A stretch of 64,000 nucleotides of DNA from positions 384,001 through 448,000 of the forward strand of contig CAWEMM010000007.1 of the NCBI GenBank assembly GCA_963810095.1, read 5' to 3'. The notes beneath the pieces were generated by a model that searched no databases, was not told the origin of the DNA, and worked only from the letters and a program-made list of their open reading frames with translations. Below are positions 16,349 through 39,257 of this stretch, piece after piece. The translations under genes were made by a program, and so were the position numbers. Numbering within the stretch: position 1 is the first letter of the stretch; every line of letters begins with the position of its first letter. The stretch comes from an uncultured Chloroflexia bacterium. Its GTDB lineage: Bacteria > Chloroflexota > Anaerolineae > CG2-30-64-16.

Positions 16349-17257
16349 ATGACCCTCTTGTCGATCCGACTTTTCGGGCGGCCGCGGGCTTGGCTGGGCG
16401 CGGACGCCGAGATCAAGTTTGCGCACACCGGCCAGACGCTGCTGGCCTACCTGCTGCTGCACCGCGACTTCAGCCCACGCGACCTGCTGGCATCGCTGTG
16501 CTGGGCCGAACAGCCCGAGGAGAGCGCCCGCAGCTGTCTGAACACGGCCCTCTGGCGCCTCCGCAGCTCGCTCGAACCCGGCCCAACCGCCCGCGGAACG
16601 TACCTTCTCACGAGCCCGGCTGGCGAGGTCGGTTTCAACTGGGAAAGCCAGCACTGGCTGGACCTGGCGGAGTTCGAGCACGTGATCGCGTCCGCGCTCG
16701 CCCGGTCCCCCGCACAACTCGCCCAGGCAGAGATCGCCGCGTTGGAACGGGCGCTTGACCTCTACAGTGGCGACCTGCTTGAAGGGTTTTACGACGATTG
16801 GGCGCTGCGGGAACGCGAGCGCCAACGTGGGCTGTACTTGGATGGACTGCAGCACCTGATGTCGCGGCACACGCTCGACGGGGCCTACCAGAAGGGCATC
16901 GCCGCGGGCCAGCGCATCCTGCGGCTCGATCCCCTGCGCGAAGACGTCCACCGGGACCTCATGCGCCTCTATGCGGCCAACGGGCAGCGCGCGCTCGCCG
17001 TCCGCCAGTACACGGTGTGCCGCGAGACACTGCACGTCGAGTTGGGCATCCCGCCCATGGACGAAACGGAAGCCTGTTACCGTGAAGTGCTCGCAGCGCG
17101 TCGAGCGGTTGCGGGCGTCGCGCCTGCACTGCCAACCAGGCCCGACCTTGCGAGCGCGCTCGCTGAGCTTGATGCTGCTCGGCGGCAGCTTCAGACGGCG
17201 CAGGAGCGGCTTAGCGAAGCTGTTTCAGCCATGGAGCAATTTGTACCGTGCTCGTAG
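16349..17257 (+). CDS. SARP/AfsR-type transcriptional activator (winged HTH + BTAD)
   Basis: IRLFGRP, LLAYLLLH..RD.LA...W, LNTALWRLR, LY.GDLLEG.YDDW...ERER, DPLREDVHRDLMRLY..GQR..A.RQY..C...L..ELGIPP..ET. Confidence 0.92.
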   Translation: MTLLSIRLFGRPRAWLGADAEIKFAHTGQTLLAYLLLHRDFSPRDLLASLCWAEQPEESARSCLNTALWRLRSSLEPGPTARGTYLLTSPAGEVGFNWESQHWLDLAEFEHVIASALARSPAQLAQAEIAALERALDLYSGDLLEGFYDDWALRERERQRGLYLDGLQHLMSRHTLDGAYQKGIAAGQRILRLDPLREDVHRDLMRLYAANGQRALAVRQYTVCRETLHVELGIPPMDETEACYREVLAARRAVAGVAPALPTRPDLASALAELDAARRQLQTAQERLSEAVSAMEQFVPCS

Positions 17258-17258
17258 G

Positions 17259-17316
17259 TCACATGCCTTCAATGTGATTCGGATGTGACCCGAATGTGAG
17301 TCCTTCCTGCTAGCAT
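17259..17316 (+). promoter_or_regulatory. Putative SARP-binding direct repeats and -10 box of the eCIS operon
   Basis: ATGTGA at 17272, 17283 and 17294 (11-bp period), inverted TCACAT at 17259, then TGc-TAGCAT at 17308-17316; no recognisable -35. Confidence 0.65.
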
Positions 17317-17397
17317 GCCGCTGTCATTTGACGGCGGCTTTTTTGTGCGCGCCGCTGCGGGGGCGCCGCAGCGTGCAGCCCTGGCCCAAGTGAGGAC

Positions 17398-17601
17398 ATG
17401 GCAGAGGACGGCGACCGGAATGTCTTCATCGTGCGCATTTGGCGCGAGCCGCGCGAGTCCGAGGCCGCGCCGACCGAGTGCCGTGGCGTAGTGGAACACG
17501 TGGCGTCGGGCCAGCGGCGCTTCTTCCGTGAGCTTGGCGACCTGGACGAGTTCATCCAACGCCTGAGCTGTCTCGGGGAATCGAAAACGAGCAGGAGGTA
17601 A
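17398..17601 (+). CDS. Small hypothetical protein, first gene of the eCIS operon
   Basis: GAGGAC RBS; FIVRIWRE...RGVVEHVASGQRRFF..L.DL.EFI pattern; stop codon 2 bp before the sheath start. Confidence 0.65.
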   Translation: MAEDGDRNVFIVRIWREPRESEAAPTECRGVVEHVASGQRRFFRELGDLDEFIQRLSCLGESKTSRR

Positions 17602-17603: not shown

Positions 17604-19121
17604 ATGCCCGTCACGCCCACATATCCGGGGGTGTACATCGAGGAAGTCCCCAGCGGGGTGCGGACCATTGCCGGCGTCGCCACGTCGATCGCGGCCTTTG
17701 TCGGTTGGTCGGGGCGCGGCCCCACGGATCGCGCCCGGCTCATCTCCAGCTGGGCCGACTTCGAGCGGCTCTACGGCGGCCTGGACGCGCGGAGCCTTCT
17801 CGGCTACGGCGTCTACCACTTCTTCAACAACGGCGGGCAGCAGGCTCACATCATTCGCCTCGCGGCCGCCAACGCGGACGTCGCCACCAAGACGATCGAC
17901 GGCAAGCTGATCGTGGACGCGGCGAACGCGGGCGACTGGGGCGAGCAGTACGGGGTCAGCATCAAGCGTCGCACGCCCGGCGAGTTGCCTTTTCGCCTGC
18001 AGGTGCTGTACCGGCCTAATCCGAGCGACACGCCGGTCGTGGTGGAGTCGTTTGAGAACGTCTCGCTCGATCCGCTGGACCCCCGTTTCGTCGGCAACGT
18101 GCTCGCCGCGTCGTCCGAGCTGATCACGGCCACGCTGGTCGACCCGAACGCAGCCCCTGCACCGTTCACCGCGGATTTTGCCGGCCCCGAAATGCTCGAG
18201 AACGGCGCACTCGGCGATATCCTCGCCCCGAACTCGAGCGCGTTTCACACGGCGCTGCAGGCGGGTGGGGGAACGGCAGGCGTCAACCTGCTCGACCGGG
18301 TGGACCTCTTCAACCTGCTCGTCGCGCCCGGCGAAACCGACGCGGCCGTACTCGGCCAACTCCAGAAGTATGCGCGCGACCACCGGGCCTTCCTGATTGC
18401 GGATGCGGCGGAGGATGCGACGTTCACCGGCCTCTCCACCGGTCCCGCTGGTGACCTCACTGGCGACAATGCGATCAACGCGGCCTTCTACTTCCCCTGG
18501 GTGCGGGCGGGCGACCCGCGGCAGGAGAATCGCTTGCGCGGCTTCCCGCCGTCGGGGTTCGTCGCCGGCATCTACGCCCGAACCGACGTCACCCGTGGGG
18601 TGTGGAAAGCGCCCGCGGGCGTCGACGCGAGCCTGACCGGCGTCTCGGGCGTGACCGTTCCGCTGACCGACCTGGAGAACGGCACGCTCAACCTGCGGGG
18701 CATCAACTGCGTGCGCAACTTCGCCGTCTACGGCACGGTCGTGTGGGGCGCGCGCACGCTGCGCGGCAACGACGAGGTCGGGTCCGAGTGGAAGTACGTG
18801 CCCATTCGCCGGCTGGCGCTCTACCTCGAAGAAAGCCTGTATCGCGGGCTCAAATGGGTGGTGTTCGAGCCAAACGACGAGCCGCTGTGGGCGCAAATCC
18901 GGCTGAACGTCGGCGCCTTCATGCACGACCTCTTCCGCCAGGGCGCGTTCCAGGGCGTCAGCCCGCGCGACGCCTATTTCGTCAAGTGCGACAAGGACAC
19001 GACGACGCAGAGCGACCGCAACCGCGGCATCGTCAACATCCTCGTCGGCTTCGCGCCGCTCAAGCCCGCCGAGTTCGTGATCCTCAAGATCCAGCAGATG
19101 GCGGGCCAGATTCAGGCATAA
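17604..19121 (+). CDS. Contractile tail sheath protein (Afp2/3-like)
   Basis: TYPGVYIEE, YFPWV, PPSG.VAG.YARTD..RGVWKAPAG, VWGARTL, WVVFEPNDE.LW, APLKPAEFV. Confidence 0.96.
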   Translation: MPVTPTYPGVYIEEVPSGVRTIAGVATSIAAFVGWSGRGPTDRARLISSWADFERLYGGLDARSLLGYGVYHFFNNGGQQAHIIRLAAANADVATKTIDGKLIVDAANAGDWGEQYGVSIKRRTPGELPFRLQVLYRPNPSDTPVVVESFENVSLDPLDPRFVGNVLAASSELITATLVDPNAAPAPFTADFAGPEMLENGALGDILAPNSSAFHTALQAGGGTAGVNLLDRVDLFNLLVAPGETDAAVLGQLQKYARDHRAFLIADAAEDATFTGLSTGPAGDLTGDNAINAAFYFPWVRAGDPRQENRLRGFPPSGFVAGIYARTDVTRGVWKAPAGVDASLTGVSGVTVPLTDLENGTLNLRGINCVRNFAVYGTVVWGARTLRGNDEVGSEWKYVPIRRLALYLEESLYRGLKWVVFEPNDEPLWAQIRLNVGAFMHDLFRQGAFQGVSPRDAYFVKCDKDTTTQSDRNRGIVNILVGFAPLKPAEFVILKIQQMAGQIQA

Positions 19122-19150: not shown

Positions 19151-19672
19151 GTGGCACAGTTCAGCGTCAACGCACAGCGTTTCGACCCGTACAAAAACTT
19201 CAAGTTTCGGGTCAAGTGGGACGGCCGGTACGTGGCGGGCGTGAGCAAGGTCAGTGCGCTCAAACGCACGACGGAAGTCGTGAAGCACCGGGAGGGGGGC
19301 GATCCGTCATCCTCGCGCAAATCGCCGGGGCGGACCGAGTTCGAAGCGATCACGCTGGAACGGGGCGTGACGCACGATCCCGAGTTCGAGCGCTGGGCAA
19401 ACAAGGTGTGGAACTTCGGCTCGGGGCTGGGCGCAGAGGTGTCGCTGAAGGACTTCCGCAAGGACATCATCATCGAGGTATACAACGAGGCGGGCCAGCT
19501 GGCGCTGGCCTACCGGGTGTTCCGCTGCTGGGTCTCCGAGTTCCAGGCGCAGGCCGACCTCGACGCGAACGCCAACGCGGTCCTGATCCAGAGCTTGAAG
19601 CTGGAAAACGAAGGCTGGGAACGCGACCCTGAGGTCGTGGAGCCGGCCGAGCCGTCGTTCGTCGAACCTTGA
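19151..19672 (+). CDS. Tail tube protein (T4 gp19/Afp1-like)
   Basis: GTG start after GGAGG; RFDPYKNFKFRV, HREGGD, ITLERG.T.D, DANANAV.I..L.LENEGWERD. Confidence 0.95.
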   Translation: MAQFSVNAQRFDPYKNFKFRVKWDGRYVAGVSKVSALKRTTEVVKHREGGDPSSSRKSPGRTEFEAITLERGVTHDPEFERWANKVWNFGSGLGAEVSLKDFRKDIIIEVYNEAGQLALAYRVFRCWVSEFQAQADLDANANAVLIQSLKLENEGWERDPEVVEPAEPSFVEP

Positions 19673-19683
19673 TCGAGGTCGTG

Positions 19684-20355
19684 ATGCGCGGGCTGACAGC
19701 AGAGGAAATCCTGGACCTGGCGGAGAAACCGGGTTTCTTTGGCGAAGGCGCGTCGGTCGGGCGGACCGATTCAGCCTTGCTGCAGCTTCGCGCGGCCACC
19801 TTCGGCCCCACGCTTCAGTGTGCCGTCGACTGCCCGGCCTGCGGAGCGACGCTCGAGTTCGCCGTTGACGCCGGCCAACTGTTGGCGTCCGCGGCCGAGG
19901 AGCAGGCGTCGTACCGGTGGAGCGGATTGGGCGCGGAGGTCGAGTACCGCTTGCCGTCCTACGCCGACGTCACTTCTCTGGCCGGCTGTGCCGATGCGAA
20001 GGCAGCGCAGGCTGCGCTGTTCGCCCGGCTGGTGCTGACCGCGTCGCTCGACGGGCAGCGGATCGAAGCGCGGGCCCTGCCTCCCGAGGTCGTGGAGGCG
20101 GTGGACGCGGCCATGGCCGAGGCTGACCCGCAGGCCGAGACCGAGTTCCGGCTCGACTGCGGCGAGTGTGGGCATGGGTGGGTGGTCCCGTTTGATCCGG
20201 CCGCCTACTTCGAGCGCGAGCTGGCGCACGAGGCGCGGCGTTTGATGGCCGAGGTGCATGTTCTGGCCGGCGCATACGGCTGGCGCGAGCCGGATATCCT
20301 TGCACTGAGCCCCGGCCGGCGCCGCATTTACCTGGAATGGGTGCTGGGCTCATGA
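19684..20355 (+). CDS. eCIS-associated baseplate/hub assembly chaperone-like protein with two CxxC motifs
   Basis: CPACG and CGECG motifs, ADPQAE, EVHVLA.AYGW.E.DIL.L...RR..YL; follows the tube gene. Confidence 0.75.
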   Translation: MRGLTAEEILDLAEKPGFFGEGASVGRTDSALLQLRAATFGPTLQCAVDCPACGATLEFAVDAGQLLASAAEEQASYRWSGLGAEVEYRLPSYADVTSLAGCADAKAAQAALFARLVLTASLDGQRIEARALPPEVVEAVDAAMAEADPQAETEFRLDCGECGHGWVVPFDPAAYFERELAHEARRLMAEVHVLAGAYGWREPDILALSPGRRRIYLEWVLGS

Positions 20356-21014
20356 GTTACCTTGCGCATCTTGCCGCACGCGCCCTTGGCCTGAAGGGGG
20401 CGGCGATCCGCCCCGTGCTGGCGCCGTACTTCCTGCCCGTGGCCCCCGGGCGCCCGGCGCAGGGGGCGGAGGAACGTGGCGCGCCGCCGCAAGCACAGCC
20501 GGGCGTGCTGCCGCGAGATGGGGCGCTGCCGCCGCCGCAGGCGGCGGCAGCGCCCGCCGGGTTGCCTGGGGACCCGGTGGGTGACGGCGCACGGCTCATC
20601 CGCCCTCGCCGCGCACGTCGTGCAACCGCCCACTGTCGAACCGGCCCCGGCGGTTCCCCTTACCCCCCGGGACGAGGATGCGGCTGCGATTCGGCCCGTC
20701 CGGGAACCGGGGCACCCCGTGCCCGCGCCCCGGGCCGTCTCGGTGACGCCCGAGCGCAGCCCGCTAATGGCGGCCCGGCGCACCGTCGACGCCTTATATG
20801 CCGCGCCCGCCCGCCCCCGGGGCCGGCTCAGCCGGGCCCGGCCGAGCCGCCATCCGTCCATATCCACATCGGCCGGGTCGAGCTGCGAGCCGTGCCCGCG
20901 CCGCTCGGCCCACCCCAGCCCGCGGCGTCGGAAAGCGCCCGGCGTGTGGGCGAGCGCCGCGCCGGTTCCTCGCTCGAAGAGTACCTGGCGCGGCCGCACG
21001 GAGGTGGGTCATGA
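20352..21014 (+). CDS. Pro/Ala-rich eCIS hypothetical protein (possible compensating frameshifts in the middle)
   Basis: ATGA overlaps at both ends; MSYL..LAAR N-terminus and VHIHIGRVELRA...SLEEYL C-terminus; the middle looks more protein-like in the frame of ORF 20476..21243. Confidence 0.65.
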   Translation: MSYLAHLAARALGLKGAAIRPVLAPYFLPVAPGRPAQGAEERGAPPQAQPGVLPRDGALPPPQAAAAPAGLPGDPVGDGARLIRPRRARRATAHCRTGPGGSPYPPGRGCGCDSARPGTGAPRARAPGRLGDARAQPANGGPAHRRRLICRARPPPGPAQPGPAEPPSVHIHIGRVELRAVPAPLGPPQPAASESARRVGERRAGSSLEEYLARPHGGGS

Positions 21015-22311
21015 GCAACGCGCTCGCCATTGCAGCGGTTACGGCCGTCCTGCGCGACCTGCTCAACAACGGACTGGTCGAGGGCGACGTGCCCTCACAG
21101 GTCGGCGCGGTCCAGGTGACCGCCGTTCCTCCGAGCACGATCACGGTGGGGCAGGACGAGCCCGCCCGGCTCAACCTGTTCCTCTACCGCGTCACGCCAA
21201 ACCAGGGCTGGCGCAACGAGCGCCTGCCCTCGCGCTCTCCTGACGGCGCGCGCATGACCAACCCGGCCCTGGCGCTCGACCTGCATTACCTGCTGACCGC
21301 TTACGGCGGCGACGAGTTCGTGCCCGAAATCCTGCTCGGTTATGCCATGCAGCTGCTGCACGAGACGCCGTGCCTGACCCGGGATGCGATTCGTCAGGCG
21401 CTTGCGGCGCCTTCGCCCGTGGGCGGCGCAATCCTGCCGCCCGGCTTCAAGACCCTGGTCGCGGCCGACCTGGCCGACCAGGTAGAGCAGGTGAAGCTGA
21501 CGCCCGAAGCGCTGAGTATCGAGGACATGGGCAAGCTGTGGGGCGCGTTTGTCGCGCCCTACCGGCTCACCGCCGCCTATTCCGCCTCTGTCGTGCTCAT
21601 CGAGAGCCAGCGGTCGACCCGCAGCGCGCTGCCGGTGCTGAAGTACCGCAACTACGTGATCCCGCTGCTGCGCCCGACGATCACGGGCATCACGAGCGCT
21701 GCCCTGCCACCGGCCGATCCCCGCATTACGGCCGCGAGCACCGTGGTCATTTCGGGCGCAAACCTGCGCGGGCAGGTCACCCGCGTCCGCCTGGGCGAGT
21801 TCTTCGTCCCTGCTCCCAGCCTCGACGTGTCGGCCGACCGCATTGGCTTTCCGCTGGCCGGCATTGCCGGGCTTCGTGCGGGGGTGGTGCAGGTGCAGGT
21901 CGTCCACGAGCTGCTGATGGGCGAGCCCGACCCCGGCGTGGCCCACCGGGGCGTGGAGTCAAACCCGGGCGCGTTCGTCCTCCATCCGGCGATCACGGCT
22001 CCCGCCACCATTGCCGCGGGAGCAGGGTCCATCGCGATCGGTATCACGCCCGCGGTCGGCCCAGCCCAGCGGGTGACCCTGTACCTGGTGGAAAAGGGCG
22101 CGCCCGACGACCGGCCGGCTCGGGCGTACAGCTTTGCGGCGCCGAGCCAGAACGGCATCGCCTTACCCGCCACCGAGACCGCCTCGGTTGCCTTCCCGTT
22201 CGCCAACGTCGTCCCCGGCGACTACCTCGCCTACGTGCAGGTCGACGGTGCGGAGAGCCTTCTGGCTGTAGACGGGTCCGGGGTCCTCGCGTCGCCCGTG
22301 GTGACCGTCAC

Positions 22312-22315
<4 letters not shown>
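21011..22315 (+). CDS. DUF4255/Pvc16 (Afp16) cap/terminator protein with C-terminal IPT/Ig-like domains
   Basis: MSNALAIAAVT, LNLFLY.VTPN.GWRN, LALDLHYLLTAY, YRL.AAY.ASVVLI. Confidence 0.88.
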
Positions 22316-24083
<1,768 letters not shown>

Positions 24084-29269: not shown

Positions 29270-31848
29270 ACGAGCTCTACTTCTGTTGCGACGAGCGCCG
29301 CCGTGCGGCCGTGGCCGACCCAGGCTCAGGGCTCAACGGGATCGCCTATCTCGAGGTCCACGACGGCCCTGGCGTGCCCGACGCGGAGCGCCAGCAGCGG
29401 CTTTTCGTCCACTGCCTAAAGCCCGACGGGCTGAGCGGCCTGGACAAGAAGAACGTCGCAATCGAGGGCGGCGACCGGATCCGGAACGTCCGCGTGACCG
29501 CGGCCGCGGTCGATGCCGCAGACGATCATCTCCTTGTGGTCGACGTGGACGGGCCCGGTGACTTCTCGACCTACACCTTGCGCCTGGTAACGTCGCCGTC
29601 AGACCAGGCGCCGCCCGAGCCGTTCGACGTGCTGCTCTCCGCGGTCGACTTCTCGTTCAAGGTCGAATGCCCGAACGAGTTTGACTGCGGGACCGCGGCC
29701 GAGTGCCCGCCCGAGCCGCAGGCCGATATCGACGTCGAGTACCTCGCCAAGGACTACGCGACGCTGCGACGCCTTATGCTCGACCGGCTGTCGGCCATCG
29801 CGCCCGATTGGCGCGAGCGCAACCCGGCGGACCTCGGCGTCGCGCTCGTGGAACTGCTGGCCTACCTGGGCGACCGGCTGAGCTATCGGCAAGACGCCAT
29901 GGCGACCGAGGCTTATCTCGGCACCGCCCGCAGCCGTGTCTCCGTGCGGCGCCACGCACGGCTGGTGGACTATTTCATCGACGACGGGCGCAACAGCCGG
30001 GCCTGGGTCCACGTTCACCTCGCCGAGGACCGCGCGCCGGCCGATGGTCTGGTGCTGAAGCAGGTGGAAGCCGGGACCGGCGTACGCACGCGGTTCCTCA
30101 CCCGTTTTGCCGATGCGACCCCGGTCGCGGATGCCGATCTGCCCGCAGTCCTGCGTGACTACGCGCCCGAGGTGTTCGAGCCGCTGCACGACGCGTTCCT
30201 CTGCCCCAGCCACAACGAAATCCAGCTCTACACCTGGGACCAGTCGGCGTGCTGCCTGCCGAAGGGCGCGACCCGGGCGACGCTGGCCGATGACCCCGCC
30301 CGGCCCCTCCGCCTGCGCAAGGGCGACGTTCTCGTGTTCGAGGAACGGCTGGGGGCTCGCACGGGCCGCCCTGCCGATGCGGATCGCACGCACCGCCAGG
30401 CCGTCCGCCTGACCTACGTTCGCCCTGAGGCAACGGTAACCGTGGTGGACGGCGTCGAGACCCACGCGCCGGGCGGCGCCGTAACGGACAAGCTGACCGG
30501 GCAGGGCGTGGTAGAAGTCGGGTGGGACAAGGCCGACGCGCTGGCATTTCCCTTGTGCATTTCTGCCGTCACCGACGACGATCACGGGGGTGCCCTGGTA
30601 GCCAACGTGAGCGTGGCAGTGGGCAACATCGTGCTGGCGGATCACGGGCGCACCGTGACGGGCGAGGCGCTCGGCTCGGTGCCGGACGTGGCCCGGTTCG
30701 TTGCCGCCCCCCCGCAAGGCGGCGCTACCGGGACGAAGGAGTGCAAGCCTCCGCCCTTGCTTCCCGTGCCCCCGCGCTTCCGGCCCCGGCTGGCCCAGGC
30801 TCCACTCTCCCAGGCCGGGCGGTATGTCGACACGGCGCCCGCCCGCTACGGCCTTACGCCGCTCGATCCGGCCGCGTATCCGTCGATCACGCTGCATGGG
30901 GAACTGGAAGGCGAACCGAGCCTGTGGACGCCCGAGCGCGACCTGCTGAACGCCAAGGACGACGACGAGCGCTTTGTGGTCGAGATCGAACGTGACGGGA
31001 CGGCCTACCTGCGGTTCGGCGACGACGTCAACGGCAAGCGGCCGGATTCGGGCGCTACCTTCACGGCCGACTACCGGGTGGGCAACGGGCTGAAGGGCAA
31101 TGCCGGCGCAGAGGCGCTGCATCATTTCGTGGCCGGCGCTTCGGTTGCTGACGCAGTCGAATCGGTGCGTAACCCACTGCCCGCCGCGGGCGGCCGCGAG
31201 CCCGAGGATATCGAGGACGTGCGCCAGGCCGCGCCCGAGGCGTTCAAGACCCAGCGCCGTGCGGTCACTGCCGAGGACTACGCCGGGGTTGCCAATCGCT
31301 TCGAGGGCACGCAGAAGGCGACCGCAACCTTCCGCTGGACGGGCAGCTGGCGAACCGTGTTTATCACGGCGGACCGGCTGGGCGGCGACCCCGTAGATGC
31401 TGCCTTTGAGGCGGGCCTGCGGGATTTTGTCGAACCCTACCGGATGGCGGGTCAAGATCTCGAAGTCGATAGCCCGAAGCCGGCCCCGCTCGAGCTGGCC
31501 CTGCAGGTGTGCGTACAGCCGGGTCATTTCCGGTCCGACGTCAAGGCCGCGCTGCTCCAGGTGCTCTCGCGGCGCACGCTGCCCGACGGCCGGCGCGGCC
31601 TCTTCCACCCAGACAACTTCACGTTCGGGGCGACGCTGTACCTGAGCGCCATCCTGGCCGCGTGCCAGGCGGTGCCGGGCGTCGCGTCGGTCGAGGCCAC
31701 TGTCTTCCGTCGCCGGGGCGCGCAGGGCGAAGCCGTGCCCGCAAGCGGCAAGCTCACCTTCGGCTGGCTCGAGATCCCCCGGCTGGACAACGATCCGAAT
31801 TTCCCCGAGCGCGGGGTCCTCAGCCTTGCGCTTGACGGCGGGAAGTGA
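29266..31848 (+). CDS. Baseplate J-like protein 1 (Afp11-like)
   Basis: YLAKDY..LR.LMLDR, DLG..LVEL.AY..D.LSY.QD..ATEAYL.TAR.R.SV.RHARLVDY, RFGD...G.RP, RAVT.EDY. Confidence 0.9.
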   Translation: MNELYFCCDERRRAAVADPGSGLNGIAYLEVHDGPGVPDAERQQRLFVHCLKPDGLSGLDKKNVAIEGGDRIRNVRVTAAAVDAADDHLLVVDVDGPGDFSTYTLRLVTSPSDQAPPEPFDVLLSAVDFSFKVECPNEFDCGTAAECPPEPQADIDVEYLAKDYATLRRLMLDRLSAIAPDWRERNPADLGVALVELLAYLGDRLSYRQDAMATEAYLGTARSRVSVRRHARLVDYFIDDGRNSRAWVHVHLAEDRAPADGLVLKQVEAGTGVRTRFLTRFADATPVADADLPAVLRDYAPEVFEPLHDAFLCPSHNEIQLYTWDQSACCLPKGATRATLADDPARPLRLRKGDVLVFEERLGARTGRPADADRTHRQAVRLTYVRPEATVTVVDGVETHAPGGAVTDKLTGQGVVEVGWDKADALAFPLCISAVTDDDHGGALVANVSVAVGNIVLADHGRTVTGEALGSVPDVARFVAAPPQGGATGTKECKPPPLLPVPPRFRPRLAQAPLSQAGRYVDTAPARYGLTPLDPAAYPSITLHGELEGEPSLWTPERDLLNAKDDDERFVVEIERDGTAYLRFGDDVNGKRPDSGATFTADYRVGNGLKGNAGAEALHHFVAGASVADAVESVRNPLPAAGGREPEDIEDVRQAAPEAFKTQRRAVTAEDYAGVANRFEGTQKATATFRWTGSWRTVFITADRLGGDPVDAAFEAGLRDFVEPYRMAGQDLEVDSPKPAPLELALQVCVQPGHFRSDVKAALLQVLSRRTLPDGRRGLFHPDNFTFGATLYLSAILAACQAVPGVASVEATVFRRRGAQGEAVPASGKLTFGWLEIPRLDNDPNFPERGVLSLALDGGK

Positions 31849-31861: not shown

Positions 31862-34351
31862 ATGGCACTCGATCCGACGATTCGCGGGCTGGATAGCTGC
31901 GGCTGTTGCGAGGGCGTGACCGCCGAGACGCCGGCCGTCATCTACAACCGGCCGGGCCTCCCCTCTATCTCATATCGCACCGGCGAGCACGCCGCGTTCC
32001 TGCGAAGCATGCTGGCGCGGCTGTCGGCCACCTCGAACGCGGGGCTCGGCCGTCTGCAAACCCGCGAAGCCGACGATTTCACGGTCGCGCTGCTCGACGC
32101 ATTTGCGACGATGGCCGACGTGCTCACGTTTTACAACGAGCGCATCGCGGAAGAGTCGTACCTGCGCACGGCGAAGGAACGGCTGTCCATCCTCCACCTT
32201 GCGCGGCTGATCGGGTACGAGCTGGCCCCCGGCGTTGCGGCGGCGACGCCCGTCGCCTTCAACCTGGAGACCGCGGCAGGCGCGCCGGAAGAAATCACGC
32301 TCGATCCGGGTGTCCGCCTGCAGAGCATCCCGGGTCCGGGCGAGACCGCGCAGATCTTCGAGACCGTCGAGACGATCACAGCACGGGGTGCGTGGAACGC
32401 AATCAAACCCCGGCTCACCGCACCGGCCGCGCCCGACCCCGCCGCTTCCACCGTGTACCTCCAGGGCACGGACGCTAATCTCAAACCCGGCGACCGGCTC
32501 CTGATCGCCGGTTCAGCGACGAGCTGGGCCGTGCGCCGGATCGCCGCAGTGACTCTCGAGAATGACCCGGGCCGCACGAAGCTGACGCTCGAAGGTGCGA
32601 CCGGGGGGAACGGCGCGGCGCCCGCGGGCCTCGCTGCGGGCGTCTGGGCGCTGCGGGTCAAGGCGACCCCGTTCGGCAGCAACGCGCCGCTCAAGCCCGA
32701 CCCGGAGACCCCGGGAGATCTCGACGCGGCGACCGAGTGGGATTTGTCTGAGACGGCGGGCGTCCTCAGCCTTGACTCGGTCCAAGACAGCATCAGCACC
32801 GGCAGCTGGGTGGTCGTCGACCGCATCTGGTACTACTACGGCTACACACTGGGACTGCCCTACCCCGCGAACGGGCGCATCGACCTGCTGCTCAAGGCGA
32901 ACCAGGTGCAGACGTTGGCTCGCGCCAACTACGGCATAGCCGCCCGCGTCACGTCTCTGACTCTGAGCGGCGGCTGGCTCGATCCGCTCGAGTGGTCGCT
33001 CTGGTGGGTGCGGAACACCGTCGTCTACGCGGGCAGCGAGCTGCTGGCGCTGGCCGAGGCGCCGCTGCCCGACGCGCTGGAGCCGAACACCATCACGGTC
33101 GCCGGCGATGTCTCCGCTCTTCCTCCCGGCCGCAGCCTCGTCTTCTCGGGCCGCTTGCTCGGGCAGGCGCCTGACGCGCCCCTTACGATTGAGTTGGCAG
33201 CACTCAAGTCCGTCAGCGTCGTCGACGCTAACAGCGTCCTGACGCTGGAAAAGTCGCTGGTCAGCGCCTTCGACCGGCGGACCGTGGCCATCAATGCGAA
33301 CGTCGCGGCGGCCACGCAAGGTGAGACGGTGAGCGAAGTGGTGGGCGGGGGTGATCCCGCGCGGGCGCACCAGGCCTTCGTCCTGAAACAGGCGCCGCTA
33401 ACCTACACGACCGGCGCGGCCGGCATCCAAAGCTCGCTCTCGGTGCGGGTGAACGATGTGCTGTGGCACGAAGCGCCGACGCTCTACGCGACCGGGCCGC
33501 GGGACCGTATCTACGCTGCCCGCACCGAGCCGGACGGCCGCACCACGATCCGATTCGGCGACGGCGAAGCGGGCGCACGCCTGCCCCGCGGCACAGATAA
33601 TGTCCGGGCCATCTACCGCAAGGGCGCAGGCGTCGCGGGGAACGTCAAGGCGGGCCAGGTCAGCATGCTGCTGACCCGGCCGCTCGGCGTCAAGGATGTA
33701 GTCAACCCGCTGCCCGCGAACGGCGGCGCCGACCCGCAAAGCCAGGAACAGGCGCGCGCAAATGCGCCCATCGCCGTTCTGACGCTGGGCCGGGTCGTGT
33801 CCCTGCTCGACTACGAGGACTTCGCCCGCGGCTACCCCGGCATCGCGAAGGCGCTGGCAACGTGGACCTGGGACGGGCGGCGCCGCGGCGTGCTGCTGAC
33901 CGTCGCAGGCCCGGAAGGCGCACTCATCGAGGAGGAAGGCATCGCGTGGCCCGGCTTGCTGAGCAGCCTGGTCGGCGCAGGCGACCCGCATGTGCCCCTC
34001 CGCCTGCGAACGCACCGCCCGGTCGGGTTCGTGCTGACCGCGTCGCTGGCCGTCGCGCCGGATTATCTGCCCGAAAAGGTCGTCACAGATGTCGAGACCG
34101 CCCTTCTTGCCGCGTTCTCGTTTGACGCCCGTCAGCTGGGGCAGGCGGTCGCGCTGAGCGAAGTGTTGGCCGTGATGCAGGCAATCCCGGGCGTGCTCGG
34201 GGTGGATGTGGACCGCCTGCACCGGCCCGACCAACCGCCTGGCGCCTATCCGCGGCTGCGTGCCGCCGTGCCGCAGCCCGGTGCGGCCGACGGACCCGGC
34301 GCCGAACTCCTGACCCTTGACGCGGCCGCGTTGTCGCTGGCGGCAGGCTGA
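31862..34351 (+). CDS. Baseplate J-like protein 2
   Basis: DVLTFYNERIA.ESYLRTA.ER.S...LARLIGY...PG.AA, RFGDG..GARLP.G..N, R.VSL.DYEDFAR. Confidence 0.9.
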   Translation: MALDPTIRGLDSCGCCEGVTAETPAVIYNRPGLPSISYRTGEHAAFLRSMLARLSATSNAGLGRLQTREADDFTVALLDAFATMADVLTFYNERIAEESYLRTAKERLSILHLARLIGYELAPGVAAATPVAFNLETAAGAPEEITLDPGVRLQSIPGPGETAQIFETVETITARGAWNAIKPRLTAPAAPDPAASTVYLQGTDANLKPGDRLLIAGSATSWAVRRIAAVTLENDPGRTKLTLEGATGGNGAAPAGLAAGVWALRVKATPFGSNAPLKPDPETPGDLDAATEWDLSETAGVLSLDSVQDSISTGSWVVVDRIWYYYGYTLGLPYPANGRIDLLLKANQVQTLARANYGIAARVTSLTLSGGWLDPLEWSLWWVRNTVVYAGSELLALAEAPLPDALEPNTITVAGDVSALPPGRSLVFSGRLLGQAPDAPLTIELAALKSVSVVDANSVLTLEKSLVSAFDRRTVAINANVAAATQGETVSEVVGGGDPARAHQAFVLKQAPLTYTTGAAGIQSSLSVRVNDVLWHEAPTLYATGPRDRIYAARTEPDGRTTIRFGDGEAGARLPRGTDNVRAIYRKGAGVAGNVKAGQVSMLLTRPLGVKDVVNPLPANGGADPQSQEQARANAPIAVLTLGRVVSLLDYEDFARGYPGIAKALATWTWDGRRRGVLLTVAGPEGALIEEEGIAWPGLLSSLVGAGDPHVPLRLRTHRPVGFVLTASLAVAPDYLPEKVVTDVETALLAAFSFDARQLGQAVALSEVLAVMQAIPGVLGVDVDRLHRPDQPPGAYPRLRAAVPQPGAADGPGAELLTLDAAALSLAAG

Positions 34352-34362
34352 GGTTGATGCTC

Positions 34363-36409
34363 ATGGATGCGAAACAGCTTTTAGATCTGCTCCCCGCCAT
34401 TTACCGCCTGCGCGATGCAGAGCAGGGCGGTCCGCTGGAGGCCCTGCTCGAGGTTCTGGCCGAGCAGCTGGCCGGGCTCGAGGAGAGCCTGGACCAGATG
34501 TACGACGACCAGTTTGTCGAGACGGCGGCGCCCTGGGTGCTGCCGTACATCGGCGATCTGATCGGCTACCGGGCCGTCAACCTCGATGCGTCGCCGGTGC
34601 TGGGCAGCCCGCGCAGCGAGGTGGCGAACACGATTGGCTACCGGAGGCGCAAGGGCACCGCGGCCATGCTCGAGCAACTGGCTCGCGACACGACGGGGTG
34701 GGACGCGTCCGTCGTCGAGTTCTTCGACCGGCTCGCCACCACCCAGACCATGAACCACATCCGACCCGCTAACCTCTACGCGCCGCATCTGCGCCGCATC
34801 GGGGAGCTTCCGCCGGTAGACTCGCCGTTTGACCGGATCAGCCACACCGCCGACGTGCGCCGGATCGGCGCGGGCCGCACCGGCCGGGCGGCCGGGGGCC
34901 AGGGCAAATACAACATCCCGAATATCGGGCTGTTCCTGTGGCGAATCCAGGAGCAGCGTCTCACCCGTTCGCCCGCGGTCGCGCTCGGCGGGGGGCGCTA
35001 TCTCGTTCATCCGCTCGGCGTCGACGCAGCGCTCTACAACGACGCGCGGCCGGTGCCCGATTTTGCGGGGCTCGCCACGCCCGCCAATGTTCCCGCAGCC
35101 GATCGGCCGGCGCCATTTGTCGCGGCAGCCGGCGGAGTACTACGGCCTTGGTCAGAGCTTGCTCGTCGAACTGCACCCCGTGGACGGCGGCGGACTCTTC
35201 GACCCCGCCGCTTCGCCCACTGCCGTCCCGGTTGGGGACATCGTCGCCTGTGACCTCTCGGACGTGCTCGACGGCTCGGGTGGGACCACCTGGGCACATC
35301 TGCCCATTCCCGGGGGCCGGGTCGCGGTGGACCCCGTCCTCGGCCGGCTCGCGTTTGGCACGGCGCCGGCCGAGATGGTGCTCGTCACCTTCCACTACGG
35401 CTCCCCGGCGGAGATTGGCGGCGGCGAGTACGAGCGGGCGGCGACTTTCCAGGCGAAGCTCGAGCCGCTCACGCCGGTCAGCATGCCCGGTCCGTTGCAA
35501 GCTGCGCTGGCGGGGCTAACGACGGGCGGCGTCGTCCAGGTCCAGGACAGCGGGCGCTATGCCGAGACGTTGTCGCTGTCGCTCGACGCCGGCGCACACG
35601 TCGAAATTCGGGGGCGGAACGGCGCGCGGCCCACGCTCGAACTGGGCGCGGAGTGGATCGTCGACGGCGGCGCGGGCAGCGAGCTGACCTTGAACGGCCT
35701 TCTGATTGCGGGCGCAGGGCTGCGGGTGACGGGCAACCTGGCCCGGCTGAGCCTGGTTCACTGCACGCTGGCCGGACCGCTCACCGTGGAAGCGGCCGGA
35801 GTGCAAGTCATGGTCGAGTCGAGCGTCACGGCGGGGCTGTTCGTCCATAAAGAGAGCAGCATGTCTGTCGAGAACAGCATTGTCGACGCGGGGGCCGACG
35901 CCGGCTGGGCCTATTCCGGCTCGGGGGCAGCTGCGGGAGCGGCGCCGGGCGGCCCGTTGACCGCGACCGGTTCGACGGTGATCGGGCGGGTATGGACGAC
36001 GGAGATGCCGCTGGCCTCAAATGCGATCTTTGACGCGCGCGTGCCCGAGGATGCGCCGGACACACCGCTCCAGTACCCGGTACGCGTCGACCAGCGGCAG
36101 GAAGGCTGCGTGCGTTTCTCTTACGTGCCGCCCGGCTCGCGGACGCCCCGGCGCCACCTGTGCCAGCCGGCCGGCGACGTGGACCCTCGCCGGGTGCAGC
36201 CCGACTTCACGTCCCTGCGCCTTGGTGATGCGGGCTACGGGCAGTTGAGCCAGCGCGGGCCCGTCGAGATTTCGACCGGCGCGGACGACGGCGGCGAGAT
36301 GGGCGCTTACCATCACCTGCTCGGCCAGCAGCGCGTCGCGAATCTGGGCGTGCGCCTCGACGAGTACCTGCGCTTCGGCCTCGAGGCCGGCATCTTCTTC
36401 GTTTCGTGA
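34363..36409 (+). CDS. Phage tail protein I-like baseplate wedge (Afp12-like); frameshift near 35095
   Basis: LLPAIYR.RD, YDD.F.ET...WV.PY.GDLIG, RRRKGT...LEQLA; second frame has VAVDP.LGR, GCVRFSYVP, GA.DG.EMG and L.EYL.FGLEAG. Confidence 0.85.
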
Positions 36410-36418
36410 GGTGAGAGT

Positions 36419-39199
36419 ATGAAGGGCGATTTCAGCCGGCAAACGTTTGACCCCCGCAGGCACCACAGCGCCGTGCTCATGCAACAGGGCCGGGTGCAGC
36501 TCGATGCGGACTGGAACGAACAGGATGCCATCGGCCGCTACCGGGACGAGAAGGAAGCCGTCGACACGATTGGACGCTGCGGGGGCCCCCTGCACGCGGC
36601 CGGCTTCGAGATCACCTCTGACGGCCAGCAGTTGTTCATCGGCCAGGGCCGCTACTGGGTGGACGGCATTCTCGTCGAGAACGATCTTGGCGACCTCCGC
36701 TATGACCAGAGCGGCGCCGGCGAGACTGCGGCCGTGGCGTTCGACGTCCAACCGTACTTCGCCGGCCCCACGCTGGCCGACCAGCTCGCGGCGATGAAGG
36801 AAAATGGCGCGGCGGCCGCGCTGGCCTATCTCGACGTCTGGGAGCGCCATGTGACGGCGCTCGAGGACCCCAGGCTGCGCGAAGTGGCGCTCGGCGGTCC
36901 CGATACGACGACCCGGCGCCAGGTCGTGTGGCAGGTCAAGCTGCTGGCCATCAGCCGGGACGACCAGGACGAGCGCACCGCGCTGCTGGAGCGGCGCAAG
37001 TCGCTGCAAGTCGACCTGGACGGGGTGAAGCAGGCCTCAGAGCAGCTGGCGGGCCAGATCAAGGAGCTGGAGGACAAGCTGGCCGCGGCACCGGCCGGCG
37101 GCGCCGCGGCCAGGAAGCTGCAGGCGCAAATTGCCAGGCTGCAGACCCAGCAGAAGGAACTGGACGCGAAACAGGCCGAGGTCGGGGCGGCATTGGCCGA
37201 GGTCGACAAGGAATTGCAGGCGCTGGGCGGCGGCAGCGAACCGGCCTGCGACGGCGAGATCCCCGGGTGGGCCGAGCTGTGGCCCCAGCCGGGCACGCTC
37301 AACGCACGGGCCCAGCCGGGCGACCCGGCAGACGACCCCTGCGAGCTTCCGCCGGGCCGCGGCTACCGGGGACTGGAGAACCAGCTCTACCGGGTGGAGA
37401 TCCAGCGAGGCGGCGCGGCCGGCGTTGCAACGTTCAAATGGTCTCGCGACAACGGCACGGTCGTGGCGGGCATCGAGGAGATCTCCGGCTCGACCGTCCG
37501 GTTGGACACCCTCGGCCCCGACGACGTGCTCGGCTTTGCGAGCGGGCAGTGGGTCGAACTGCTGGATGACCGGGTGGAACTCGGCGGGCAAGGCGGCCAG
37601 TTGGCGAAGATCACGGGCATTACGACGGCCACCCGCGAGTTGACCCTTGACCCTGCACCCCAGCCGCTGGCCGCGAGCGCAGGCGGGATCGACCGCTCGC
37701 TGCATCCCCGTTTGCGGCGGTGGGACCAGGCCGGCGACACCGCAACCGCGGACGGGGTCCTCACGGGCGGCGGTTGGTTGGAGCTGGAAAACGGGGTCGA
37801 GGTCCAGTTTGGCGGGGAGCCGGGTGCGGCCTACCGGCCCGGCGACTACTGGACCATCCCGGCCCGGGCCGCCACCGGCGACCTCGAATGGCCGCCCTAC
37901 GAGACGCCGAATCTCAATCCCGTGCCCCAGGAGCCGGCCGGCATCGAACACCACTTCTGCCGCCTTGCCCTGATCCAGTGGGAGGGCGACAAGCTGAGTG
38001 TCTCGGATGACTGCCGCCAGATCTTTCCGCCCCTGACGGAAATCTGCTGCACCCGCGACGCGCTGCACGTGACGGCCATCAACTGGACGAACGACGGGGC
38101 CGCGCCGGCAAGCCTCCTCACGGACCCCGGGCTTCGCATCACGCTGGACGCGGCGCCCGAACCGGCTTCAGTCAGCAACGACAGCCTCCTGGTCACGCTC
38201 GACTTCCCGTTCAATACGGGGAACACGACCGTCCCAAACATCCGGCAGCGGCTGGTAATTCTGGGAAGCACGGTGGGCGTCGACCCGAACGATCCGCGCA
38301 CCATCGTCTGGCAGTTCCGCGAAGCGAATGTTGGCACGACGAACGGCGGTGCGCAGCCACCCACGACGGGTGGGACGGCTCAGCCGCCCACGGGAGGCAC
38401 GGCGCAGCCGCCGGCCGGCACGCCCACGACGCCGCCGATCGGGATATTCCATCCCCCGATCTTTGGCGGGCTCAATCCCGGCATCCTGAATCCCGCCATC
38501 GTCGTCGAGCGAGCGGTGGCGCCCGCACAGTCGCAGCTCCGGCTCAACGTGACCCTGCGGGGCAGCTTCATCTGGCGCGCAGAGGGGCGCAAGCGAATCT
38601 ACCTGGACGGGGAGACGCTGGGCGTGCCGGTGACCGACCCGGGGAGCCAGCAGGTGCGGACCGGGCTCGATCTCCCGTCGGGCGACGGCCGGCGGGCAAG
38701 TGACTTCGAAAGCTGGTTCTTCCTGGGCACGGGCCGGCCGGCGCCGCAGCCGTTGCAGGTGGCTGCGGTGACCTTCCGGACGACGTTTGGTGCGGCGCCG
38801 CGCGACGTGGTCACGGTGAAGGAGTTCACCACCGATCCGGCCAAGTTCCAGCCGATCCAGTCAAAGGACGCGGTGAACGTGCTCGATCTGCAGTTCAACC
38901 GGGCCGTAAATCCGGAAGGCGATTTCGCCAGCGACGCGCCTGCGCCAGTCTTTGTCGAGTTTCTGGGTCCGAACGGCAGGCGCTGTTTCGGAGATCTGAC
39001 GGTGAAGGGCACCCGGGCGCTGTTCACCGCCCGGCAACCGGAGGTCTTCAAGCAGCCGGGCGACTACCGGCTCACCGTGTTCGCCGCGACGGGCAACGGA
39101 GGCATCGGGGTCACGGCGCAGGACGACGGCTCAGCCTTGGATGGCGATTTCGACGGCCAGCCCGGGACGAATTTCTTCCTGATGTTTCGGGTCGCTTAG
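36419..39199 (+). CDS. DUF6519-domain protein (probable tail fibre/accessory), last gene of the eCIS
   Basis: MKGDFSR.TF, QQGRVQLDADWNE, GRYWVDGIL.EN, YLDVWER, GGPDTTTR, YRGLENQLYRVEI, FKWSRDNG, GDYW.IPAR; coiled-coil insert; Ig-like C-terminus ending LDGDFDGQPG. Confidence 0.85.
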   Translation: MKGDFSRQTFDPRRHHSAVLMQQGRVQLDADWNEQDAIGRYRDEKEAVDTIGRCGGPLHAAGFEITSDGQQLFIGQGRYWVDGILVENDLGDLRYDQSGAGETAAVAFDVQPYFAGPTLADQLAAMKENGAAAALAYLDVWERHVTALEDPRLREVALGGPDTTTRRQVVWQVKLLAISRDDQDERTALLERRKSLQVDLDGVKQASEQLAGQIKELEDKLAAAPAGGAAARKLQAQIARLQTQQKELDAKQAEVGAALAEVDKELQALGGGSEPACDGEIPGWAELWPQPGTLNARAQPGDPADDPCELPPGRGYRGLENQLYRVEIQRGGAAGVATFKWSRDNGTVVAGIEEISGSTVRLDTLGPDDVLGFASGQWVELLDDRVELGGQGGQLAKITGITTATRELTLDPAPQPLAASAGGIDRSLHPRLRRWDQAGDTATADGVLTGGGWLELENGVEVQFGGEPGAAYRPGDYWTIPARAATGDLEWPPYETPNLNPVPQEPAGIEHHFCRLALIQWEGDKLSVSDDCRQIFPPLTEICCTRDALHVTAINWTNDGAAPASLLTDPGLRITLDAAPEPASVSNDSLLVTLDFPFNTGNTTVPNIRQRLVILGSTVGVDPNDPRTIVWQFREANVGTTNGGAQPPTTGGTAQPPTGGTAQPPAGTPTTPPIGIFHPPIFGGLNPGILNPAIVVERAVAPAQSQLRLNVTLRGSFIWRAEGRKRIYLDGETLGVPVTDPGSQQVRTGLDLPSGDGRRASDFESWFFLGTGRPAPQPLQVAAVTFRTTFGAAPRDVVTVKEFTTDPAKFQPIQSKDAVNVLDLQFNRAVNPEGDFASDAPAPVFVEFLGPNGRRCFGDLTVKGTRALFTARQPEVFKQPGDYRLTVFAATGNGGIGVTAQDDGSALDGDFDGQPGTNFFLMFRVA

Positions 39200-39257
39200 C
39201 GCGAGCGTGGGCGGCAAGCGGCGTCCGCCGGACGCCGCATGCCGCCCACGCTCGCGC
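39199..39257. terminator. Long GC-rich hairpin between the convergent eCIS and RCC1 genes
   Basis: About 28-bp arms GCGCGAGCGTGGGCGGCA-A-GCGGCGTCC / GGACGCCGC-A-TGCCGCCCACGCTCGCGC. Confidence 0.6.

Follow-up and report, generated by a model that had tools for sequence, protein, structure and literature searches.

A run of phage-tail-like genes on contig CAWEMM010000007.1 (assembly GCA_963810095.1) raises the question of what kind of contractile injection system (CIS) it encodes, and how such a system would be switched on, loaded and deployed. The genes were analysed within a stretch of 64,000 nucleotides, referred to here as the window. The cluster comprises 20 genes, all on the + strand between positions 16349 and 39199: a gene for an activator of the SARP (Streptomyces antibiotic regulatory protein) type comes first, followed by 19 tightly packed CIS genes. 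Genes were called from G+C content at third codon positions (GC3) and from start-codon context, the raw lists of open reading frames (ORFs) being crowded with spurious frames in this GC-rich DNA. That the locus is a lineage II CIS operon headed by a SARP gene is, taken by itself, highly probable. The fuller statement, that it is a complete IIa-like operon of an Anaerolineae-like member of the Chloroflexota, with a SARP of its own and working in the way proposed below, is the reading we favour, with a good deal less assurance.

Gene content and lineage of the operon

Species-representative genomes were scanned with the sheath protein, giving at least 604 matches. The best 80, none above 63% identity, were kept with 10-kb flanks and are the 80 related loci referred to throughout. 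Wherever the flank reaches, these loci keep the same gene order: sheath, tube, T4_baseplate-like gene, small low-complexity gene, cap, ATPase, small gene, slot gene, tube initiator, tail X-like gene, hub, spike and PAAR. The initial annotation had described about 20 co-oriented genes as an extracellular CIS (eCIS) operon lying between an activator gene and a terminal hairpin, and family matches, the 20 + strand genes and the hairpin (z −9.1, below) agree with that description. The parts that characterise the eCIS superfamily were found, namely a sheath, a gp19-type tube, a Pvc16 cap, an Afp15-type ATPase, gp25, baseplate J and a VgrG-type spike, with a PAAR protein weakly matched. The families named in the initial gene list were borne out, save that the tube gene had to be corrected to frame 2 at 19151–19672; three conserved genes, at 19669–20355, 20337–21014 and 24084–24374, had been left unnamed.

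The tail tube and its surroundings come first in the operon proper. The sheath (Cis2/Afp2-like, 505 aa, 17604–19121) matched PF04984 and PF17482. The inner tube (gp19/Cis1-like, 173 aa) matched PF06841 (2.5e-44) and TIGR02241 (4.7e-44), and shares 82–91% identity with tubes in related loci. It is followed by a T4_baseplate-like protein (228 aa, 19669–20355; PF12322, 6.5e-11; phrog_150 'baseplate hub', 1.3e-8), whose gene is present in 76 of the 80 related loci. Next is a 225-aa protein (20337–21014, alternative start 20352) with a low-complexity centre rich in Pro, Ala, Gly and Arg, and with a conserved C-terminal motif, IGR(I/V)E(V/I)RA ... SL(D/E)(D/E)YL. No match to it was found in Pfam, NCBIfam or PHROG scans; the ORF in the same position carries the motif in all 65 loci tested. 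Since lineage II has no recognisable Afp14, it is a reasonable guess, from position only, that this protein is a candidate tube-lumen or length-determining protein. The Pvc16/Afp16-like cap (DUF4255, 434 aa, 21011–22315; Pvc16_N, 1e-49, residues 9–210) has a C-terminal extension, and homologues from five related loci align with it over residues 1–416 to 1–419. An AAA+ ATPase with a winged-helix domain (Afp15/Pvc15-like, 591 aa, 22312–24087; AAA, 1.1e-26; WHD, 6.5e-16) and a conserved small protein (96 aa, 24084–24374) complete this part; the latter matched no family, and phmmer found relatives in the same position in 19 loci (E < 1e-3).

Beyond a 474-aa protein (24371–25795), treated separately below, the genes are those of a baseplate, a spike and a fibre. 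An Afp7-like tube initiator (216 aa, 25792–26442; CIS_tube, E 2.7e-4, 21.2 bits against a cut-off of 27) shows 48–61% identity to proteins in 36 of the 80 related loci. A tail X/LysM-like baseplate protein follows (125 aa, frame 3, 26439–26816; Phage_tail_X, E 0.0024, 17.9 bits against a cut-off of 22; phrog_46 'baseplate hub', 2.2e-5). The gp27/gpD-like hub, which corresponds to the N-terminal half of a split VgrG (382 aa, 26821–27969), had no Pfam match of its own; a profile of its 18-member family matched VgrG chain 9rce_F at 5.3e-9, and three of the 18 members matched Phage_GPD. The OB-fold spike (gpV/gp5, 169 aa, 27962–28471) matched Phage_base_V at 2.8e-21. The PAAR-like spike tip (106 aa, 28473–28793) was assigned from its position after the spike and from sub-threshold matches to DUF4280 (E 9.5e-4, 20.2 bits against a cut-off of 26.3) and PAAR_motif (E 0.17), with 60–62% identity to proteins in 16 of the 80 loci. 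A gp25-like wedge protein (117 aa, 28916–29269; GPW_gp25, 8.7e-18) precedes two baseplate J/Afp11-like proteins, copy a (860 aa, 29266–31848; TIGR02243, 1.8e-81), which weakly matches 9gtp_1K and T4 gp6, and copy b (829 aa, 31862–34351; TIGR02243, 3.5e-65). The tail I/Afp12-like baseplate protein (about 683 aa, 34354–36409) contains one +1 frame change at 35092–35095 and scored 26.1 bits against Mu gp48 (cut-off 37.4) and 25.3 bits against TIGR02242 (cut-off 51.85). The Afp7-like, PAAR-like, tail I and tail X/LysM labels thus all rest on scores below curated cut-offs. The last gene encodes a DUF6519 (eBAP5) tail-fibre-type protein (926 aa, 36419–39199; DUF6519, 2.8e-71, residues 1–518). Its C-terminal 400 aa or so had no match in Pfam or the phage collection, and the whole protein had no meaningful match in the PDB.

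Packing was tight, with 17 of the 19 gene junctions showing an overlap or a gap of at most 29 nt; the two larger gaps are one of 140 nt after the regulator gene and one of 122 nt before the gp25 gene. Overlaps of 4 nt occur at eight of the 19 junctions, or nine if the 225-aa gene starts at 20352, so that the earlier description of the genes as mostly ATGA-coupled was overstated. Between the operon end and a convergent RCC1-repeat gene lies a nearly perfect palindrome with a 25-bp stem (39201–39255; −70.5 kcal/mol), which was equalled by none of 200 shuffles. It has no T-run, and the terminator scan made no call there. A second hairpin with a 25-bp stem (28815–28885, +; −62.2 kcal/mol, z −7.8, 0 of 200 shuffles) fills the 122-nt gap between the PAAR-like and gp25 genes, and its arms have no other copy in the window. 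This hairpin is AT-richer than its surroundings; it may act in processing or stability, or as a partial terminator.

The database relatives of the sheath number in the thousands, at 60–66% identity across the Acidobacteriota, Pseudomonadota, Verrucomicrobiota, Myxococcota, Gemmatimonadota and other phyla; the two closest stand at 92% and 76%. The nearest relative with a named organism comes from an Anaerolineae metagenome-assembled genome (MAG; 76% identity), and six of six organism-named matches to a flanking M3 peptidase were Chloroflexota (Anaerolineae, Anaerolineales, Ardenticatenales and unclassified). These matches uphold the earlier assignment to a probable Chloroflexota genome and support, as far as protein similarity goes, an Anaerolineae-like member of that phylum as the likely host.

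Subtype was judged from gene content. In the available portion of Chen 2019, two afp11 genes indicate IIa or IIc, a split afp8 indicates IIa to IIc, afp10 is missing in IIb only, a divergent afp12 is kept in IIa and IIb and absent from most IIc and IId loci, and afp14 is generally absent from lineage II. Set against these rules as far as that portion gives them, the window has two afp11 genes in tandem, a split afp8 (hub plus gpV), an Afp12-like gene and a PAAR-like gene (a weak match), and IIa fits on all of them. The IId pattern in the same portion, one afp11 and an unsplit afp8, does not agree with the two afp11 genes and split afp8 seen here. The earlier report of no tape measure stands, although by the same source the lack of Afp14 is the norm for lineage II. 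Among solved structures the best sheath relative was 9ezm (264 bits), followed by the Streptomyces-type sheaths 8bky and 8bl4. The code 9ezm was found only in the Halogeometricum CIS paper (PMC11566945), the accessible text of which places its cluster in clade IIa. Gene content therefore suggests that the cluster belongs to eCIS lineage II and is IIa-like.

Two observations were made on related sheaths. Archaeal contigs L002 and L023 (Methanothrix/Methanotrichaceae MAGs) carry sheaths of the same lineage, and among the rows of the sheath tree L002 lies closest to the window (64% identity); this points to cross-domain transfer or to mis-binned contigs. In the Anaerolineales loci L030 (10001–11932) and L079 (10001–12259), the match to sheath residues 226–505 starts 1.1–1.4 kb into the gene, which suggests that these sheaths have a sizeable additional part, N-terminal or inserted.

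The SARP gene, its repeats and the 67-aa protein

The first gene (16349–17257, +) encodes a small activator of 302 aa with a putative OmpR-type winged helix and a BTAD domain at residues 104–248 (6.2e-24). The NCBIfam model for AfsR-type SARPs aligned over residues 7–258 at 2.7e-8, far below the whole-protein cut-off of that model. Together with the repeats described next, these matches agree with the SARP/BTAD activator proposed in the initial annotation.

SARPs act at direct repeats with an 11-nt periodicity that stand at the promoter in place of a −35 element; heptamer direct repeats of this kind serve the regulators ActII-ORF4, DnrI and AfsR, the last acting on afsS. A putative SARP box of this form lies directly after the regulator gene (17259–17299, +), where a repeat search found ATGTGA as direct repeats at 17272, 17283 and 17294, with 11-nt spacing, and an inverted copy at 17259–17264. 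The triple repeat is unique in the window at up to two mismatches, and none of 100 shuffles matched it. The window shares with those regulators a small BTAD protein, here with a putative winged helix, the 11-nt direct repeats and a small presumed target ORF directly downstream, as in afsR–afsS. It differs from them in that the presumed target is a phage-tail-like machine rather than a biosynthetic cluster, in its ATGTGA core and in its Chloroflexota host.

The first gene of the operon proper (17398–17601, +) encodes a 67-aa protein of no known family, with the motif F-I-V-R-I-W ... R-G; GC3 supports it as coding, and no match was found in Pfam, NCBIfam or PHROG. The co-occurrence of the three elements was followed across the related loci. 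In seven of the 80 loci a homologue of the regulator gene precedes the sheath gene in the same orientation: five from Chloroflexota, one from Amycolatopsis and one from a Thermoleophilia MAG (Actinomycetota). A triple repeat with 11-nt periodicity, defined as at least five of seven positions identical in all three copies, was present upstream of the sheath gene in 7/7 of these BTAD loci and in 3/72 of the non-BTAD loci, none of the 72 reaching six positions; one locus was dropped for having too little upstream sequence. A counterpart of the 67-aa protein occurs in all seven BTAD loci. A profile built from these and the window's protein matched only those eight sequences, and none of 73 non-BTAD loci had a match at E ≤ 1. 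The trio of SARP gene, triple repeat and 67-aa protein thus occurs in seven of the 80 related loci, all from Chloroflexota or Actinomycetota. The synteny of BTAD gene, 67-aa gene and sheath gene, which had been proposed as a search, is found in these seven, save that in the Anaerolineae locus L042 (8319–9821) a gene for a 500-aa calcineurin-like phosphoesterase stands between the small 'IVRxW' gene and the sheath gene.

The core of the repeat follows the similarity of the regulator. It is GTGA in the window, L030 and L042, the regulators of the two loci being 43–49% identical to that of the window. In L004, L078 and L079 it is AGACG, and in the two actinobacterial loci TGACG; the regulators of these five are 32–35% identical to that of the window.

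A candidate −10 hexamer, TAGCAT (17311–17316, +), was read from the sequence 15 nt after the start of the GTGA core in the last repeat. The same 15-nt spacing from the last core to a TA-rich hexamer was read by eye in L042 (TATATT) and L030 (TACAAA). A consensus scan found no sigma-70 site at TAGCAT, as is expected for a promoter without a −35 element. Directly after the hexamer is a terminator-like hairpin (17317–17344, +) with a 9-bp stem, seven of whose pairs are GC, followed by TTTTTT. The operon leader, folded from the presumed start at 17323, had no unusual structure (z 0.11). Further upstream, TTGTGC and TATAGT with a 17-nt spacer were seen by eye at 16090–16118; this is a possible promoter of the SARP gene with a leader of about 225 nt, at which the consensus scan made no call.

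From the repeat architecture and the co-occurrence of its parts, we infer the following sequence of events. The SARP would bind the three ATGTGA repeats, which are spaced by one helical turn and lie immediately before the −10-like TAGCAT, a hexamer with no −35 element. SARP-dependent transcription would begin at about 17323, which falls within the 5′ arm of the hairpin. Operon transcripts would then not form this hairpin, whereas transcripts of the SARP gene itself would end at it and its T-run. A single transcript of about 22 kb, from the 67-aa gene to the DUF6519 gene, would then be driven by the SARP.

In the sheath tree (FastTree, local supports; 75 of 81 sequences used, six dropped because the sheath was partial or not extractable), the seven BTAD loci and the window fall in several separate places among loci of other phyla. 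The scatter led us to reject the cassette as a clade marker, and it indicates that the cassette tracks host phylum and not sheath lineage. A bolder proposal combines two parts. In the first, the SARP gene, the triple repeat and the 65–85-aa 'IVRxW' protein would be a portable ignition cassette by which a horizontally roaming lineage II machine is wired into the regulation of Chloroflexota and Actinomycetota alone, the repeats co-varying with the regulator and the small protein being perhaps an as yet undescribed partner of the SARP or a CIS assembly factor. In the second, the 474-aa protein would found a cargo class without DUF4157. We put this combined proposal forward tentatively and think it rather unlikely to hold in full.

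BTAD has already been listed as a 'shell' regulator domain of eCIS (Geller 2021), and a 2026 review repeats it. Among the titles listed for literature pairing contractile injection with SARP or BTAD, none pointed to work on the binding sites or on a small partner protein, though a description elsewhere is possible. The initial annotation had thought that the combination of regulator, promoter and cargo might be undescribed. A BTAD gene beside an eCIS is in print, and what is modestly new is the cassette of SARP, repeats and 67-aa protein, together with the slot protein that lacks DUF4157. The locus otherwise belongs to a catalogued and widespread type of CIS and leaves the general picture of eCIS unchanged. 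Microbes of soil and sediment carry lineage II CIS in abundance, yet few of these have been characterised, and little is known of what switches them on. The locus and its seven relatives offer a compact, testable regulatory unit of an activator, three repeats and a small protein, which could serve to turn on such machines heterologously, or in hosts that are not yet amenable to manipulation.

The protein in the cargo slot

The interval between the ATPase and tube initiator genes was surveyed in the 33 related loci with both flanking genes within 4 kb. The gap was below 400 nt in five loci, and 26 loci had an ORF of at least 250 aa. The largest slot ORF carries PF13699 (eCIS_core, formerly DUF4157) in 23 of these 26, and the C-terminal parts of the slot ORFs vary, with VanY, OmpA, Tse3-like, NS_2 endonuclease and other domains. 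The slot ORFs of L031, L032 and L033 (Acidobacteriaceae/Terracidiphilus; 1141–1172 aa) join eCIS_core to an NS_2 endonuclease, recalling the Tme protein of Streptomyces davawensis.

Two characterised systems bear on this slot. According to the accessible text of PMC11566945, DUF4157 proteins are CIS-dependent secreted cargo in a clade IIa archaeal system. In S. davawensis, the DUF4157 effector Tme occupies the same slot and is loaded, as stated in the available text of Nagakubo 2024 (PMC11126660).

The slot of the window is occupied by the 474-aa protein (24371–25795, +). It had no match in Pfam (none at E ≤ 1 for eCIS_core), NCBIfam, PHROG or the PDB, the last searched with the protein alone and as a profile. 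It had no match in plasmids and none in the 80 loci by tblastn or phmmer, and contained no hydrophobic segment. A comparison of its two halves detected no duplication (E 5.1). The family is rare: an exhaustive HMMER search of 1.84 billion representatives found 96 relatives, 35 of them at E ≤ 1e-30, with shared residues at about 55–450. PF13699 is carried by 15 of the 40 relatives scanned, in 14 of them N-terminal to the shared module, and is missing from the other 25. Since so many relatives also lack it, the absence of eCIS_core from the 474-aa protein is best taken as a trait of the family and not as a local lesion.

Domain searches and position suggest that the 474-aa module is eCIS-associated and sits in the cargo slot, here without the domain thought to mark cargo. 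The initial annotation had found no recognisable toxin–immunity pair and had allowed for unlinked cargo genes; this protein is a cargo candidate within the operon. The synteny of the slot leads us to propose the 474-aa protein as the likeliest cargo, sitting where relatives encode DUF4157-fused effectors. A slot protein of this kind bears on what marks proteins for loading.

Mode of action and rival explanations

In the particle as proposed, the baseplate would be made of gp25, the two J proteins, the Afp12-like and tail X-like proteins, the split VgrG (hub plus OB-fold spike) and the PAAR-like tip. The tube initiator, tube, sheath and Pvc16 cap would form the tail, the AAA+ ATPase would serve assembly or loading, and a fibre would be anchored by the DUF6519 protein. 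A 2026 catalogue (PMC12923769) names DUF6519 as eBAP5, a baseplate anchor of eCIS tail fibres, and suggests that loci without fibre candidates might act intracellularly. A crude hydropathy scan found no convincing membrane span in the proteins of the cluster. With a fibre-type protein encoded in the cluster and no membrane protein among its products, we lean slightly towards a fibre-bearing particle that binds a cell surface, whether released or acting on the envelope, over free firing in the cytoplasm. This is the least certain step of the proposal.

Several points weigh against the proposal as a whole. The subtype was called from gene content and not from a tree with dbeCIS references. The N-terminal Trans_reg_C match of the regulator is weak (E 0.003, 18 bits against a Pfam cut-off of 26.2). 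By eye, the terminator-like hairpin lies downstream of the repeats in the window and upstream of them in the four relatives where it was seen (L030, L004, L078 and L079), so that the promoter model for the window is not a simple copy of theirs. A profile made from the 23 DUF4157/eCIS_core domains of the loci found none in a six-frame translation of the 64 kb (best E 4.4), and the domain that marks cargo in relatives is therefore missing; the segment AFDFGKIGI of the 474-aa protein was considered as the vestigial start of an eCIS_core, which the profile did not support (E 14, matched elsewhere). The 474-aa protein may have a structural role instead of being cargo. The cluster and the scanned flanks encode nothing recognised as serving lysis or release, which would fit a non-released system equally well. 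The only characterised clade IIa system is membrane-anchored and not released, according to the accessible part of PMC11566945, and the S. davawensis CIS appears, in the available text of PMC11126660, to act on the envelope of the producing cell itself. Cytoplasmic CIS particles are made by Chloroflexota with another subtype (PMC12998442). Lastly, the given sequence of the tail I gene contains a frame break, which, if real, would leave the baseplate defective.

Of the rival explanations, the one that survives best, though we consider it unlikely, is that the particles remain unattached in the cytoplasm of the cell that makes them and, under stress, fire to kill or remodel that cell, a mode known from Streptomyces coelicolor and proposed for Roseiflexus. 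Such action had been suggested in the initial annotation by analogy with Streptomyces. The cluster and flanks contain no holin, endolysin or secretion genes, the absence of the first two being as first reported, and there is no Afp14-type tape measure. CIS particles have been imaged in the cytoplasm within the host phylum (PMC12998442), and 8bky and 8bl4, both Streptomyces sheaths, rank second and third among the solved relatives. Missing lysis genes, however, are common among eCIS loci and do not separate the modes of action. The IId systems of S. coelicolor, Roseiflexus, Thermogemmatispora and Deinococcota (PMC10066040, PMC12998442) do share with the window their place in lineage II and the absence of an Afp14-type tape measure and of linked lysis genes, and Roseiflexus and Thermogemmatispora also share its phylum. 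The imaged Chloroflexota systems and the S. coelicolor system (CIS-Sc) nevertheless have one afp11 and an unsplit afp8, whereas in the window afp11 is present twice and afp8 is split, as in IIa and IIc. CIS-Sc has no tail fibre, while the last gene here encodes a DUF6519/eBAP5 fibre-type protein. No transmembrane effector genes like Sco4256–4258 and no CisA-like membrane protein were seen in the cluster. The locus shows that CIS of the Chloroflexota are not restricted to the cytoplasmic IId type reported in 2026.

A decaying, non-functional cluster, in which the Afp12-like frame change is real and the loss of DUF4157 from the cargo slot belongs to the same decay, appears quite improbable. The tail I frame moves +1 at a short C-run (35092–35095), splitting a protein that is single in most of its 120 best relatives (about 640–700 aa, a few listed much shorter), and the existing source annotation calls a 381-aa tail I piece (P0121). 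The lack of an eCIS_core domain in the window would also suit decay. The two pieces are complementary: the N-terminal one aligns to residues 1–249 of the 686-aa relative P0122 and the C-terminal one continues from residue 250. At least five similar frame breaks were found in four flanking housekeeping genes, a GH3 glycosidase in three pieces (4322–6991, −) and, each in two pieces, an E1 dehydrogenase (51315–52273, +), a GFO/IDH oxidoreductase (54375–55483, +) and an adenylosuccinate lyase (59759–61172, +). Because the same defect occurs in these genes, on a contig as long as 658,558 bp, the tail I break is likely an indel error of the assembly rather than decay of the CIS. All other genes of the operon keep an open frame, high GC3 and full-length alignment where relatives were compared, and the missing eCIS_core is, as noted, shared by 25 of the 40 relatives of the 474-aa protein. 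A programmed frameshift in tail I was considered and rejected, most of the 120 best relatives being single long proteins (the closest full-length ones are P0122, 686 aa, and P0123, 679 aa). The initial annotation had raised the prospect of inactivating frameshifts in both hub and tail I. Tail I is indeed broken in the given sequence, but the supposed hub frameshift was rejected, the region holding two intact genes, a separate 125-aa gene (frame 3, 26439–26816) and then the hub gene (frame 1).

Slightly less probable still is a membrane-anchored CIS that resembles the type VI secretion system (T6SS) and fires from the producer's cytoplasmic membrane into neighbours, as in Halogeometricum borinquense. 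That system is the source of 9ezm, the best solved sheath relative. In the accessible text of PMC11566945, it has two Cis11 genes and no Cis6 or Cis14, as has the window, and a DUF4157-type cargo logic is common to the wider lineage. The 9ezm match is distant, however, at 264 bits against about 700–1070 for database relatives. The archaeal mode correlates, in that same text, with a six-helix membrane protein encoded beside the cluster, by which the particle is anchored. No such protein was found in the window: no cluster protein has a convincing membrane span, and the scanned flanking ORFs are metabolic or transport genes. The window also differs from the system described there in its SARP cassette and its DUF6519 fibre-type gene.

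A prophage remnant or R-type tailocin might be suspected from the proteins that the locus has in common with myovirus tails, namely the sheath, the tube, gp25, baseplate J and the tail I and tail X-like proteins. This reading can be dismissed: the locus carries the eCIS markers Pvc16_N, AAA+ ATPase and DUF6519, the 64 kb contain neither a tRNA nor a capsid, terminase, portal, integrase, lysis cassette or phage-type tape measure, and the related loci (the best 80 of at least 604) span many phyla with the gene order kept wherever the flank covers it.

The eCIS markers likewise bear out the initial view of an Afp/PVC superfamily CIS rather than a prophage or a canonical T6SS. Capsid, terminase and TssJLM genes were sought as linked genes; neither these nor portal, integrase or lysis protein genes were found among the 43 flanking ORFs within the window. 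The canonical T6SS parts TssJLM, TssA/F/G/K and ClpV were absent from the Pfam matches of the cluster and flanks. Among the closest described systems is the CIS of S. davawensis. The sheath clade of that system extends, in the available text of Nagakubo 2024 (PMC11126660), over Proteobacteria, Chloroflexota and Actinobacteria and is distinct from CIS-Sc. As described there, its effector gene lies directly upstream of the tube-initiator and spike genes, the slot of the 474-aa gene, and its cluster ends with receptor-binding-type proteins. That text gives Tme as a protein of 2247 aa which has DUF4157, a nuclease domain and membrane helices; the slot protein of the window has 474 aa and lacks all three. 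The word 'regulator' does not occur in the available text of that paper, whereas the window has a SARP cassette. With Afp and PVC (Ia) the locus shares sheath, tube, Afp7, spike, PAAR, gp25, Afp11, Afp12, the Afp15 ATPase and the Afp16 cap. It differs from them in having one sheath gene instead of three, in the mid-operon position of cap and ATPase, and in lacking Afp14, Afp6 and an Afp13-type adenovirus-like fibre; sheath similarity to these systems is 159–182 bits.

The 43 flanking ORFs are metabolic or transport genes, which include those for peptidases, dehydrogenases, a sugar ABC transporter, a glycoside hydrolase and the like. Neither an integrase nor a tRNA gene was found at the cluster borders; ARAGORN found no tRNA, and Rfam no match, in the window. 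The gene convergent with the operon end (39279–41300, −) encodes a 673-aa RCC1-repeat (beta-propeller) protein. A 481-aa ORF of no family (12772–14217, −) overlaps a DUF3037 ORF (13544–13960, +), and one of the two is probably spurious. In 2-kb steps, the G+C content of the window ranges from 0.62 to 0.73 and that of the cluster from 0.66 to 0.725, above most of the flanks. Positions 20001–42000 are mostly at 0.67–0.725 against 0.62–0.68 for the flanks, which fits horizontal acquisition.

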